Part shown: positions 24,261 to 28,959 of the stretch, one piece after another | Position numbering within the stretch: position 1 is the first letter of the stretch | Layout: each line of letters starts with the position of its first letter | Source of the DNA: an uncultured Spirochaetota bacterium | GTDB taxonomy: Bacteria; Spirochaetota; Brevinematia; Brevinematales; JAOACQ01 | Direction: 5' to 3' | Length of the DNA: 64,000 nt | NCBI GenBank assembly: GCA_963835575.1 | Contig: CAWIGG010000005.1 | Coordinates: forward strand, 384,001-448,000 | Notes under the pieces: generated by a model | The model's input: only the letters and a program-made list of their open reading frames with translations | Told to the model about the DNA's origin: nothing | The model's database searches: none | Made by a program: the position numbers and the translations under genes

Positions 24261-24601
24261 CCGGCAGCAACTGCCGGGGGTTTTTACCGGCTGACAGCCA
24301 GGGGGATTGCTACCTTTCTGTCTTTTCGAAAAGACAGAAAGGTAGCACCAAAGAAAGAAAACAGGTCGAGGCCATTTTCATACTAAGCAGTCGGATAATA
24401 CCGAGGAGTGCTATCCGGCTTTTAATAAACTGTTCCTCATTGAAATAGCCTCCTCATGTCGCCGTCCGATGGCTTTATTCGTCGGTTTTGACATCCGTGT
24501 CAAAAGCATGTGCCTCTCTTCTATTATTATAGCAGCGGATGACACGTCAATAAATCGAGATATTTGATGTGCTGATTATGGCCAGGAGGAAAATGGCCTC
24601 G
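24261..24601. repeat. Multi-hairpin intergenic element
   Basis: 40-bp perfect palindrome at 24308-24347; 13-bp IR at 24367-24379/24589-24601; TTTTGACA-TCCG-TGTCAAAA at 24486-24505. Confidence 0.6.
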
Positions 24602-24679
24602 GGTTCGGATGGTTTTTTGAGCGGCTTTTTTGATTAATATTTTTTTCATTTATGATAAACCATTCTTTTTTATCCGGTA

Positions 24680-24701
24680 TAACAGACATTCCTGTCTGTT
24701 A
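24680..24701. repeat. REP hairpin of the RAYT-associated ACAGRCATTCCTGYCTGT family
   Basis: TAACAGACA-TTCC-TGTCTGTTA. Confidence 0.8.
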
Positions 24702-24848
24702 ATCTGTTCAAAATTCCTACGCCGTAGATTCTTACCTATCTAATGACTAAAATTAAAGAATTATTTGTTATAAGACTTTGGCTTAATCATTTGAAAAGAT
24801 ATATAATTAATGAATTAAACAACCCTGAATTTTTCAAAGGATTGAAAA

Positions 24849-27800
24849 ATGGAAATGAAGGAAAAGCTGAAATCGTTAAAAATACTTACGGATAATTTCA
24901 AAGCCAACATTAAACAATATAAAAGTCTTTCCTATGACGAAGCCAATACACGGGTGGATTTTATCGATAAATTCTTCGAGATTCTGGACTGGGATGTCAG
25001 AAACGAGCAGGGTTATTCCGAGGATTACAGGGATGTGGTGCGTGAAGACAGGGTCGTCATCGCCGGAAAACCGAAGGCGCCGGATTACAGCTTCCGCATC
25101 GGCGGCGGCCGCAAGTTTTTCGTGGAAGCCAAAAAACCCAGCGTCAACGTTAAAGAGGAAATCGATCCGGCCTATCAAATCCGCCGTTACGGTTATACCG
25201 CGAAAGTTCCCCTGTCAATCCTGACTGACTTTGAGGAATTCGCCGTTTATGACACCCGCATTAAGCCCCACAAAAACGATAAGGCAAGCGTCAGCCGGGT
25301 CTTCTACTGCATTTACGACGAATATGAAAAGCAGTTCGATTTTATTTACAATACTTTTTCTAAAAACGCCATACTCAAGGGGAGCTTCGACAGGTATATC
25401 GGGGAAAGCAAAATCAAAAAAGGCACTTCGGAAGTGGACAGGGAATTCCTCAAGCTTATCTCGGACTGGCGCGAGGAGCTGGCGAAAAACATTGCGCTCC
25501 GGAATTCCGACCTCGATATTTACCAGATCAATTACGCCGTCCAGAAAATCATCGACAGGGTCATATTTCTTCGGATCGCCGAGGACAGGGGCACGGAAAA
25601 GTACGGCAGTATCCGGGAAATGACCGGGCAGAGGAACGCCTACGCTTCCCTGAACTCATTATTTGTCAGGGCAAACGACAAGTACGACAGCGACCTCTTC
25701 AAAATCGAGCCGTTTCTAGTTAGCCTCTCCATAGACAACGATCTTTTGATTGATATTGCTTCACAAATGTACTACCCGGACTGTCCTTATGAGTTTTCCG
25801 TGCTTCCCATCGAGGCGCTGGGAAATATCTATGAGCAGTTCCTCGGCAAGATCATCCGGCTTACCGCCGGACATCAGGCCAAAGTGGAAGAAAAGCCGGA
25901 AGTCAGGAAAGCCGGCGGCGTTTACTACACCCCTCAATACATTGTGAATTATATCGTTGAAAATACCGTGGGCGCCCTATTAAAAGGTGAAACATGCAAC
26001 CCCGGTGCCACAGGCATTCCTGCCTGTGGCAATAATCCCGCGTTAAAAATAAAAAAGAGAAACCTGCCTCACTGGACAATCGATGACGCGACATATTTTA
26101 TCACTTTTAACAGCATTGACAGAAAACCATTATCATCAGAAGATCAGAAAATAGCAATGGATCATATTAAAGAGGGAAATAATAAATTTTATGATTTATT
26201 ATGCGTTGTAATAATGCCGGATCATGTTCATCTCATATTCAAACCCCTGGAAAAGTACAACCTGCCGGATATTATGAAAGGGATAAAGGGCGTATCAGCG
26301 CATAAGATTAACGTGAAAAACGGCGGCACAGGTTCGATCTGGCAGGACGAGTCTTATGACAGGATTATCAGAAATGAAAAAGAACTGATTGAAAAGATAC
26401 ATTATATGTATGATAACCCGAAAAAAGAAGGTTTAACAGAAGAAACTTACGATTATTCCGGCTGGTATTTTAATGAGGAATATTTTGGAAGCCCTGCAGA
26501 TCAGTCTGTTGATAAAGTCACAGACAGGAATGTCTGTAATACCGCTGGTAAAACCAGTAAAAGAAGTGGTACAGACAACCGTGCCACAGACATTCCTGTC
26601 TGTGGTTCACCAATGACCCCCGCTGAAATCTCCAAACTTAAAATCCTCGACCCCGCTTGCGGTTCCGGCTCGTTCCTGATCGGGGCTTATACATACCTCC
26701 TCAATTACCATAAAAAATACTACACCGATGAAAAGAGGATCGGCAAGGCCCTCAAGGAAGGGAAAATCTACCAGATCGACGAAAAGCATTACCATCTCTC
26801 TATAAAGGAAAAGCAGAAGATACTTCTGAACAATATCTACGGCGTGGACATCGACCCTCAGGCCGTGGAAGTGACCAAGCTTTCGCTCTATCTCAAGCTG
26901 ATGGAAAACGAGGCGTCCGAAACGGAAGAATTCCTCGGCGGGCATGAATGGAAAAGCGGAAGGGACAAACTCCTGCCCGGCCTCTCAGACAATATCAAAT
27001 GCGGCAACAGCCTCATCGCCAGCGATTTTTATGATGACTCAGGCTCCCTGTTCGATAAAGAGACGATCCGGTCGATCAATGCATTTGATTGGGAAAAGGA
27101 GTTCCCGGAAGTATTTAAAACTTCAACGGAAAAAGGTCCACGCAATATCAATGGTGCCACAGGCATTCCTGCCTGTGGTCAGGATCATCCCGGCGAGGGT
27201 AATAAAAAGTCCACAGACAAGAATGTCTGTGACACCAATGTCTGTGGCACCGTATCTAATACCGGCGGGTTTGATGTGGTGATCGGGAACCCGCCGTATA
27301 CCTACTTAATTTCTTTAGAGGAACAAAAATATTATTCTGAGAAATACAAACATCAGGATTATCAAAAAGACCTTTATTTATTATTTTTGGAAAGATACAG
27401 CAAATTATTAAAAATAAATGGGGTTTTAGGTATCATTATATCTAATACCTGGCTTCAATCGTTGACATATCAAAAAATTAGAATCTATATGACATCTTTT
27501 TACAAATGGAAAAAGATTTTACATATACCTGAAAAGGTCTTTAATGCCGTAGTTGATACTCATATTTTAATATTTGAAAGAAAAGATATTTTAGAAACGG
27601 ATGATTATAATTTTGATATTGAAATTTTAAGAAATAATAGTATTGTTCCTTCTCATACACTGTCAATTAAAGATATACCTCGAAACGGTGATTCAATCAA
27701 CATTGTGGCTGATAAATCAAAGAGAGTTATTTATAAAAAAATCATAGGAAAATCAAAACTTTTAAAAGAATTATATACTGTCTATAACGGAGTGAAACCT

Positions 27801-28472
27801 TTTGAAAAAGGTAAAGGAAATCCGCCTCAAATGGAAAAGACAATGAAAGAAAAACCATTTGTTAAAGAAGGTAAACGTCCCGGAAAGGAATGGAAACCTT
27901 TATTAAGGGGCAGTTTGATAAACCGTTATATAAATCTTTGGAATAAAGATTACTGGATTCTTTATGGTGAATGGTTGGCTGCGCCAAGGAATCCTAAAAT
28001 ATTTGATGCAGAATTAAAACTGCTTGTTAGGCAGACTGGAGATTCAATAATATCTACAATAGTACAAGAAGGTTATATCGCAAGAGATAATTTACATATT
28101 ATTTTATCGAGTAATAACAATAATTTATTATACCTATTAGGAATATTAAATTCTAAGCTAATGGATTTTGCTTATACTATTTTAAATCCAGAAAAAGGTG
28201 AAGCCTTAGCTCAAGTAAAGAAAGAACATGTTGAATATTTACCTATTAAAACAATAGATTTCTCAAAACATCTAGAAAAAGAAAAGCATGATAAAATGGT
28301 TTCACTCGTCAACAAAATGCTAACTACTCAAAATGAAATCAACAACACCAAAAACGAGCAGGATAAGGCGCTTTTACAGAAGCAGGCCGACCTTCTGGAC
28401 AGGCAGATCGACCGGCTGGTGTATGAGCTGTATGGGTTGACGGAGGAGGAGATCAAGGTGGTAGAGGGATGA
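24849..28472 (+). CDS. Type IIG-like restriction-modification enzyme (nuclease, N6-adenine MTase, TRD) with in-frame RAYT and REP insertions
   Basis: PDY..VEAKK, LTDFEEF, GNIYEQFL, GVYYTP, DPACGSGSFL, IYGVDID, GFDVVIGNPPY, C-terminal QIDRLVYELYGLT. Confidence 0.92.
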   Translation: MEMKEKLKSLKILTDNFKANIKQYKSLSYDEANTRVDFIDKFFEILDWDVRNEQGYSEDYRDVVREDRVVIAGKPKAPDYSFRIGGGRKFFVEAKKPSVNVKEEIDPAYQIRRYGYTAKVPLSILTDFEEFAVYDTRIKPHKNDKASVSRVFYCIYDEYEKQFDFIYNTFSKNAILKGSFDRYIGESKIKKGTSEVDREFLKLISDWREELAKNIALRNSDLDIYQINYAVQKIIDRVIFLRIAEDRGTEKYGSIREMTGQRNAYASLNSLFVRANDKYDSDLFKIEPFLVSLSIDNDLLIDIASQMYYPDCPYEFSVLPIEALGNIYEQFLGKIIRLTAGHQAKVEEKPEVRKAGGVYYTPQYIVNYIVENTVGALLKGETCNPGATGIPACGNNPALKIKKRNLPHWTIDDATYFITFNSIDRKPLSSEDQKIAMDHIKEGNNKFYDLLCVVIMPDHVHLIFKPLEKYNLPDIMKGIKGVSAHKINVKNGGTGSIWQDESYDRIIRNEKELIEKIHYMYDNPKKEGLTEETYDYSGWYFNEEYFGSPADQSVDKVTDRNVCNTAGKTSKRSGTDNRATDIPVCGSPMTPAEISKLKILDPACGSGSFLIGAYTYLLNYHKKYYTDEKRIGKALKEGKIYQIDEKHYHLSIKEKQKILLNNIYGVDIDPQAVEVTKLSLYLKLMENEASETEEFLGGHEWKSGRDKLLPGLSDNIKCGNSLIASDFYDDSGSLFDKETIRSINAFDWEKEFPEVFKTSTEKGPRNINGATGIPACGQDHPGEGNKKSTDKNVCDTNVCGTVSNTGGFDVVIGNPPYTYLISLEEQKYYSEKYKHQDYQKDLYLLFLERYSKLLKINGVLGIIISNTWLQSLTYQKIRIYMTSFYKWKKILHIPEKVFNAVVDTHILIFERKDILETDDYNFDIEILRNNSIVPSHTLSIKDIPRNGDSINIVADKSKRVIYKKIIGKSKLLKELYTVYNGVKPFEKGKGNPPQMEKTMKEKPFVKEGKRPGKEWKPLLRGSLINRYINLWNKDYWILYGEWLAAPRNPKIFDAELKLLVRQTGDSIISTIVQEGYIARDNLHIILSSNNNNLLYLLGILNSKLMDFAYTILNPEKGEALAQVKKEHVEYLPIKTIDFSKHLEKEKHDKMVSLVNKMLTTQNEINNTKNEQDKALLQKQADLLDRQIDRLVYELYGLTEEEIKVVEG
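25989..26612 (+). mobile_element. In-frame RAYT (Y1/HUH transposase) plus REP module inside the RM gene; transposase domain ~26052-26480
   Basis: RNLPHW..YFITF, MPDHVHL (HUH), K..SA..IN, WQDESYDRIIR, YMYDNP; REP hairpins at 26006-26031, 26520-26537 and 26584-26605. Confidence 0.85.
27153..27252. repeat. In-frame inverted REP doublet (REPIN-like) inside the MTase domain
   Basis: GGTGCCACAGGCATTCCTGCCTGTGG ... CACAGACAAGAATGTCTGTGACACC plus a half copy; translated as GATGIPACG..TDKNVCDTNVCG. Confidence 0.85.
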
Positions 28473-28518: not shown

Positions 28519-28959
28519 ATGAGTTTGACTTACTCGCTTGATAATTCTGATGACTTGTTTGAAAAACTAAAATATGATTACAGTAACTTGAATAATGAAT
28601 TAAATGCTTATACTTTTTTCAATTTTATTATAACAGCATATCATTTGAAGCAGTGGATTGAAGAAGATGAATTAAAATCTGAAACTCGACAGCAAAAAAT
28701 AAAAGAATTTAAAAAATCCTCTTATTATAATATTTGCCGGGACATAACAAATGCAAGTAAGCATTTTAAATTAAATTATATCCCAAAAACACAAGATGCA
28801 AACTTGATGAGTGGATGTGGTGTTGGACGGTGCGGTCATGGCGCTTGCGGAATAGGCGAATGTTCAATAGAAATCATTATGATTGATGGAAGGAAATTTG
28901 ATGCTTTGGAAGTTGCTAATAAAGTTATGAAAATATATTCGGATATATTTGAAAAATAA
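28519..28959 (+). CDS. Hypothetical protein, possible HEPN-like fold
   Basis: RBS; AT-rich; FFNFIITAYHLKQW and CRDITNASKH (R..N..KH). Confidence 0.55.
   Translation: MSLTYSLDNSDDLFEKLKYDYSNLNNELNAYTFFNFIITAYHLKQWIEEDELKSETRQQKIKEFKKSSYYNICRDITNASKHFKLNYIPKTQDANLMSGCGVGRCGHGACGIGECSIEIIMIDGRKFDALEVANKVMKIYSDIFEK

Follow-up and report, generated by a model that had tools for sequence, protein, structure and literature searches.

A RAYT (TnpA-REP) transposase domain bounded by translated REP hairpins was identified in frame inside a type IIG restriction-modification (RM) enzyme of an uncultured Spirochaetota bacterium, in a stretch of 64,000 nucleotides called the window here. This insert, designated insert 1 (25989..26612, + strand), is probably a mobile REPtron that is kept as a non-splicing passenger domain in a tolerant loop of its host. 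The unbroken frame, the motifs, the predicted folds, the recurrence of the arrangement, the repeated arrival of RAYTs in the loop and the purifying selection on embedded relatives were observed directly, and mobility, expression and activity are presumed for the copy in the window. The first-pass annotation had described a RAYT with its REPs fused in frame inside a type IIG enzyme, which is borne out by Y1_Tnp, NF047646, the 4ER8 fold and the type IIG model of PADLOC. It had, however, treated the fusion as singular, and the arrangement turned out to be recurrent, being present in 54 other long proteins and in 19 of 96 loci.

The type IIG enzyme and its two inserts

The RM gene (24849..28472, + strand) encodes 1207 aa, and zero internal stops are present in its translated frame. 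It was assigned to REase_MTase_IIG by PADLOC (PDLC03604, E 3.3e-175) and matches HSDR_N, Eco57I, N6_Mtase and TaqI_C in Pfam, with the domain order nuclease, helical domain, N6-adenine methyltransferase (MTase) and target-recognition domain (TRD). It combines a nuclease, a gamma-class N6 MTase with motifs I and IV, and a TRD in one chain with the motifs intact, like other type IIG enzymes. Unlike the usual members of 950-1000 aa, the gene is about 250 aa longer and carries two in-frame, putatively mobile inserts. The nuclease motif, which we take to be of the PD-(D/E)xK type, is intact (D79, E93, K95; 25074..25139, +) and is also present in the family consensus. The two MTase motifs, presumably to be numbered I and IV, are ILDPACGSG (26643..26669, +), immediately 3' of insert 1, and an intact NPPY (27288..27299, +). 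The C-terminal MTase part with the target-recognition region (27294..28343, +; TaqI_C match) has a GC content of 28% between segments of 48-54% and is probably a swapped specificity module. In a model of residues 9-1207, the MTase strands flanking the insert were predicted with confidence, and the nuclease region and part of the TRD with low confidence; alignment versions with misplaced RAYT rows (15-24% identity) were excluded as input for this model. By structure comparison, its MTase part resembles CamA, BrxX and M.TaqI. A promoter scan was uninformative, with 21 sites found where shuffled sequences averaged 13.4 (sd 4.3). A frame of 146 aa 3' of the RM gene (28519-28959) has no Pfam match and a weak NCBIfam match below the cut-off.

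The genes flanking the RM locus, which we take to be rsmA and kdpD, are adjacent in three of four genomes of the same genus and separated by one gene in the fourth, and neither the insert 1 RAYT nor the IIG flank was found in these four genomes. This places the RM gene in a 6.7-kb insertion that is specific to its lineage. At the left edge of this insertion, 3' of the rsmA-like gene, a perfect palindrome of 40 bases is present (24308-24347).

In the RM gene, the loop between the motif-X helix and ILDPACGSG has a length of 228 aa, compared to 20 aa in 74 of the 109 homologues parsed (the best 120 were fetched; 11 were not parsed). Since the modal length is 20 aa, insert 1 comprises 208 extra codons, and the stop-free stretch of this size proposed earlier was recovered in the alignment to insert-free IIG homologues. 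Its junctions are exact only to a few codons, because no close empty allele was found. The GC content is 39% in the insert and 36% in the RAYT core, versus 47-48% in the flanking host segments.

Insert 1 is organized as REP, RAYT, inverted REP and REP. The left REP (26005..26030, +), a perfect hairpin with a GTGC foot that is translated as GATGIPACG, adjoins the position of the ATG in free relatives. It is followed by the RAYT domain (26049..26492, +; residues 401-548), by the right inverted REP (26518..26542, - strand) with a GTAT foot, which is read as TDRNVC in the + frame, and by a third REP (26581..26605, +) with a GTGC foot, translated as ATDIPVCG. The three translated hairpins of the first-pass annotation were thereby all located at the DNA level. 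As had also been stated there, the sequence has no in-frame ATG, GTG or TTG upstream of the domain within insert 1 and no stop after it, so that the RAYT would be produced solely as a domain within the RM protein. Neither a target-site duplication nor a terminal repeat was found by eye at the junctions, and the copy has no twin in the genome and no sharp ends. The RM protein is known from one contig only; in one public read run, 5% of the sequence words were present, and the contigs obtained from it at 80% likeness were mostly foreign, with none spanning the junctions.

The segment matches Y1_Tnp in Pfam (E 3.9e-9, 37.1 bits, cut-off 23) and passes REP_Tyr_transpos in NCBIfam (NF047646, 88.9 bits, cut-off 80), and the IS200 model of NCBIfam reached 27 bits, below its cut-off of 55. 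The catalytic motifs are intact, with MPDHVH containing His459-Val-His461 (codons at 26223-26231, +) and YMYDNP containing Tyr519 (26403-26405, +). Y---NP is the class-2 signature of RAYTs according to the available text of 10.1101/279083. An IS200/IS605 insertion sequence, typified by a Y---Q motif, multiple copies and often a tnpB gene, was considered and rejected, the motif being Y---NP and one copy of the group being present in the genome. The RAYT matches 4ER8 by sequence (E 5.1e-7), and when it was modelled alone (pLDDT 89.9), 4ER8 was the best Foldseek match (E 1.7e-8, TM 0.73, rmsd 2.7). In the full model, pLDDT is mostly 85-97 in the RAYT and below 50 in both linkers and in insert 2. 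The model shows the RAYT accommodated as a folded domain on low-confidence linkers, with the MTase core predicted to be unbroken.

A second, REP-only insert had been missed by the first-pass annotation. Insert 2 lies in frame just before motif IV (about 27120..27260, +), with 47 extra codons (loop of 54 aa versus a modal 7), and holds a REP (27154-27178, +), an inverted REP (27211-27235, -) and a partial third copy. Inserts 1 and 2 precede the strands carrying motifs I and IV, respectively. In a Rossmann fold, a position preceding a strand lies at that edge of the sheet which is remote from the catalytic loops, and both inserts would be located there.

Among 137 members of the IIG family, 19 have an insert in loop 1, the loop of insert 1; of the 135 parsed, 116 have none. 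Four of these inserts are large, namely the RAYTs of the RM gene, P0142 and P0216 and the DUF559 domain of P0020, and in 15 members small inserts with REP-like peptides are present. The DUF559 domain of P0020 is flanked by its own repeat-like peptides, and another member of the family, P0066, carries a Fic domain. The loop 1 carriers cluster on the host tree (12 changes versus a shuffled mean of 18 and minimum of 14) and are spread over several separate clades. Identity to the insert 1 RAYT is 40-43% for the RAYTs of P0142 and P0216, which lie on the opposite side of a branch with a support of 99/93. A single clade of the three was rejected (p-AU 0.00012) on a tree of 55 of 260 cores; the group had been fixed by host and site before the first tree, and the test itself was run after that tree had been seen. 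The closest same-site relatives of the insert 1 RAYT form a polytomy. Judged by these trees, the same IIG loop has received RAYTs at least twice. In loop 2, five members of the IIG family hold a different Y1 domain (29% identity over 83 aa). This domain (L010, L011, L013; P0324, P0325) starts with FETKYSR, mostly has Y---NH, is confined among long proteins to loop 2 of the IIG family and has no obvious REP at its left junction. Loops 1 and 2 behave as landing places with exchangeable cargo.

The REP family in the genome

Sixteen matches to the REP repeat were identified in the genome at up to 2 mismatches, compared to 1, 4 and 3 in three shuffles. Three of them, with two mismatches and no foot, were excluded as chance, leaving 13 credible copies: five in the RM gene, two in frame in a second IIG gene and six elsewhere, of which the four that were checked are all outside long frames. 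One intergenic REP of the family lies about 150 bases upstream of the RM gene (24677..24701, +). It is preceded by a second repeat of about 60-100 bases (24540-24710), which also accompanies other intergenic REPs and has 8 matches at up to 3 mismatches and more by blastn. The fourth base of the foot is C or T in 10 of 10 counted REPs of the genome and G in 23 of 33 of relatives. The own-genome feet are hence GTRY and deviate from the GT[AG]G of REPtrons, and deviating feet were also seen in the free relatives L036, L037, L061 and L062.

The second IIG gene (C2:249432-252524), in which motif I has D-L in place of D-P, contains its REPs in the same loop 1 as the RM gene. The two genes share 16 identical bases at the left junction that are absent from the closer paralogues of the second gene, although these are mostly 85-95% identical to it near the junction. 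Such a pattern in the sequences points to the transfer of a loop cassette between divergent IIG paralogues. Three insert-free IIG paralogues surround an integrase and a replication-like gene in an RM-rich island (C2:13600-35500). A second copy of the insert 1 RAYT, or another RAYT of its group, was not found in the assembly, and the other RAYT-like genes are 25-38% identical and have a different palindrome inside their own frames. At C4:784587-788245, a free RAYT of another group with an in-frame palindrome overlaps the stop codon of an IIG-like RM gene; similar RAYTs are present at C2:500549 and C2:256997.

RAYTs of the same group in other host proteins

In a search in which the insert alone was scored against long proteins only, RAYTs of this group were identified as internal domains of 54 other proteins (663-2113 aa, among 756 candidates). 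The hosts are 37 RM or DNA methyltransferases (IIG, ISP, N6/N4), nine ValRS, four RecG, one each of PurH, PurL and AlaRS, and one other protein. Further methyltransferase-Y1_Tnp fusions and recurring sites, which the first-pass annotation had raised, are thus represented by these 37 proteins and by the shared loop of P0142 and P0216. Without the length limit, 96 loci were obtained (80 of them metagenome loci, the best 80 of 355 confirmed), namely 66 free genes, 19 internal fusions (three of them cut by a contig end), six C-terminal fusions and five ambiguous cases. Only two of the 19 internal fusions are in RM genes. The other hosts, named from the flanking sequence, are AlaRS, ThrRS, ValRS, MetH, RecG, PriA, PurH and an HrpB-like helicase, and the best 150 representatives, of which 25 are joined to a recognised host family, add DnaK, MurB, TsaD and ThiE. 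The C-terminus of thiamine-phosphate synthase is fused to a RAYT several times (L056, L057; P0188, P0193, P0194).

The nearest embedded relatives of the insert 1 RAYT (57-61% identical) are in IIG and ISP enzymes; among free genes, the closest relatives (50-55%) belong to ordinary REPtrons that have the same REP core. Footed hairpins were found on both sides of 49 of 64 free genes, compared to 5 of 59 control stretches, and in 33 of the 64 the RAYT frame runs through a REP on at least one side. On inspection, the HUH motif is present in 90 of 90 embedded cores and the Tyr in 89 of 90, figures that are biased upward by the similarity-based searches, one seed of which contained the HUH motif. 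Junction residues and lengths differ among the embedded relatives. Long vertical inheritance is seen in clades that share one host (PurH, most ValRS, ISP). Cores from ThrRS and AlaRS are 72% identical to each other, as are cores from MetH and the HrpB-like helicase. For the RecG pair P0135/P0136, a host identity of 92% and a core identity of 53% mean either cargo exchange or fast divergence. In several RM pairs the cores are more conserved than the hosts. A dN of 0.11-0.45 with a dS above 1.3 or saturated was obtained for 13 of 13 pairs computed, dS being saturated in most, and in most same-host pairs the dN of the core is close to that of the host. The embedded RAYT domains are under purifying selection.

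In a sister clade of 17 members (support 100/96), 15 RAYTs are embedded, with hosts from five families, and nested among them are two that lie in short free frames. Five elements of this clade measure exactly 577 bp between their terminal inverted REPs at three different sites, two being in MetH, one in the HrpB-like helicase and two in the short free frames, where start and stop both lie outside the unit. No in-frame ATG precedes the core inside these elements. At a second MetH site, two elements of 575 bp are present; of the remainder, six are longer with extra REPs and two did not match the end pattern. Outside the ends, CC or CT was found in 10 of 13 cases on the left and in 9 of 13 on the right. 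As far as the accessible parts of PMC3479197 and PMC8266576 state, TnpA-REP cuts at C|T, selected by the foot. The 577-bp unit corresponds to two REPs in inverted orientation with a RAYT between them; such a pair is a REPIN as the term is used in the available text of PMC3116915.

Readings of insert 1 and known systems

For the passenger REPtron, it is proposed that the element entered a surface loop of the RM protein in frame and lost its own start and stop, the RAYT staying unspliced on two flexible, REP-encoded linkers. The tethered RAYT would still nick single-stranded DNA beside its REPs. It could work in this position because TnpA-REP is a monomer, unlike the IS200/IS605 transposases, according to the part of PMC3479197 available. 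As the sole RAYT of its group found in the genome, it is a candidate keeper of the 13-copy REP family. Cleavage by the RAYT and strand transfer at the REP ends may have spread the cassette; alternatively, REPs and conserved flanks may have recombined. Survival would be limited to insertions that land in frame in a tolerant loop, aided by REPs that are stop-free in all frames; the host gene would give promoter and start, and an RM gene would add horizontal transport. REP-only alleles may derive from deletion between REPs, or from REPs that arrived first. Counterpoints are that the insert 1 copy has no twin, sharp ends or close empty allele and that the fixed-length unit is known from the sister lineage, that the REP family is small and its feet non-canonical, and that insert carriers cluster on the host tree beyond chance, with long vertical descent in same-host clades. 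The further-reaching proposal is of an autonomous protein-embedded element, a REP-bounded cassette devoid of start and stop that is expressed only as a permanent host domain, uses this domain to transfer itself with its REPs from gene to unrelated gene, and crosses between phyla on RM genes. To this, slightly less than even weight is given.

The single copy, the few REPs and the non-canonical feet would also suit a RAYT that was relocated by a rare accident, no longer moves or cuts, and is kept for a benefit to the cell, as has been proposed for free RAYTs, or for host-safe folding. RAYTs are described as non-jumping and domesticated in the available parts of 10.1101/2021.07.10.451892 and PMC8266576, vertical same-host clades exist, and folding alone can explain purifying selection. 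Fixed-length units at unrelated sites, cores of 72% identity in unrelated hosts, one loop hit repeatedly and catalytic His and Tyr in nearly all embedded cores, even if this count is biased upward by the search, argue against such an accident, which is considered rather unlikely. A domesticated defence domain, in which an HUH single-strand nuclease widens the targets of the RM enzyme, had been put forward by the first-pass annotation. It would account for the preponderance of RM or DNA methyltransferases among the long relatives (37 of 54), for the closest embedded relatives being IIG and ISP enzymes and for cores that outdo their hosts in conservation in several RM pairs. This preponderance, however, comes from long proteins only and falls to two of 19 internal fusions when the length limit is removed. 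Moreover, the same RAYT group occurs in housekeeping enzymes (tRNA synthetases, MetH, PurH, RecG), the REP substrate travels with the domain, and loop 1 is mostly empty or holds other cargo, cargo and position both varying, so that the defence role appears improbable.

Excision of insert 1 as an intein or an intron-like (IStron) element would fit an in-frame insertion in a conserved enzyme with a length that is a multiple of three. It is very improbable, since no Hint or intein family was found in Pfam or NCBIfam, no His-Asn end is present, Rfam matched no intron family at E up to 1, the junctions of relatives differ in residues and length, and the model fits the domain without a break of the core. 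On the RM locus, Rfam gave nothing at the gathering score and four sub-threshold microRNA matches on an upstream hairpin. The parasite inserting without breaking the frame, which the first-pass annotation had proposed as intein-like, is accordingly retained as a non-splicing passenger. An assembly chimera is hardly credible: the junctions are without independent read cover and the protein comes from a single contig, but the frame is kept at both junctions, there is no second copy of this RAYT to mis-join, P0142 and P0216 likewise carry RAYTs in this loop, and a paralogue carries REPs there.

The passenger REPtron resembles the E. coli REPtron (4ER8; PMC3479197, PMC8266576 and 10.1101/279083, in the parts available) as a class 2 HUH-Y1 transposase of the same fold with inverted REPs on both sides and more REPs in the genome; three cognate REPs surround its core. 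It differs in that its RAYT has no own start and stop, is internal to a 1207-aa enzyme and not a stand-alone gene with extragenic REPs, has translated REPs, and carries a GTRY foot at these REPs instead of GTRG. For a model RAYT, a GTAC foot was reported to abolish cleavage in the available text of PMC8266576. Embedded cassettes were moreover found in many unrelated genes, whereas the accessible literature states that there is no evidence of tnpA-REP mobility. Like intragenic REPs and the Rickettsia palindromic elements (PMC3733652 and PMC10969869, as far as available), which are in-frame palindromes in loops of DNA-repair, replication and tRNA-synthetase genes and to which insert 2 corresponds, insert 1 is translated in its host; unlike these non-autonomous elements of 20-80 aa, it places the transposase gene itself inside the host frame. 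The ShiLan element and the lone LAGLIDADG (PMC11855218, in part) are likewise stop-free insertions of about 200 codons in a DNA methyltransferase without a splicing domain, and such an insertion is proposed there to loop out of the methylase. The ShiLan case, however, concerns an HNH homing endonuclease, out of frame, at one site and in phages, whereas the RAYT is an in-frame HUH transposase, REP-bounded, at many sites in many cellular enzymes. With inteins that carry homing endonucleases (general knowledge and the available part of PMC11855218), insert 1 shares the life style of a host-translated selfish domain in a conserved enzyme, but it has no splicing domain, occupies variable loops and not conserved active-site motifs, and uses single-strand transposase chemistry.

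The cited papers, including PMC5581495, as far as their available text goes, describe REPtrons, REPs inserted in frame, RAYTs that do not jump and, in phage methylases, nuclease insertions without splicing. A RAYT embedded in a host protein was not found described in the literature searched, which contained few subscription papers; the supplements of 10.1101/279083 may list some. This family survey, in the part available, set long fusions aside, attributing them to gene fusion or faulty annotation, and the arrangement may have escaped notice for this reason.

In the literature, RAYTs count as non-jumping, domesticated transposases with unexplained function and spread. The recurrent cassettes in unrelated enzymes suggest that RAYT genes do move and survive as a translated passenger. 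Since the insertion site of an embedded copy is preserved in the host protein, insertion events become datable and comparable, and the unit of the sister lineage has defined ends that make it suitable for assays of excision or insertion. Two loops of IIG methyltransferases that tolerate cargo have been mapped, and the finding shows how entire nuclease domains can become part of conserved enzymes without splicing. If the embedded cassette is indeed an autonomous element, it would amount to an intein-like way of life that needs no splicing, and would be direct evidence of RAYT transposition.
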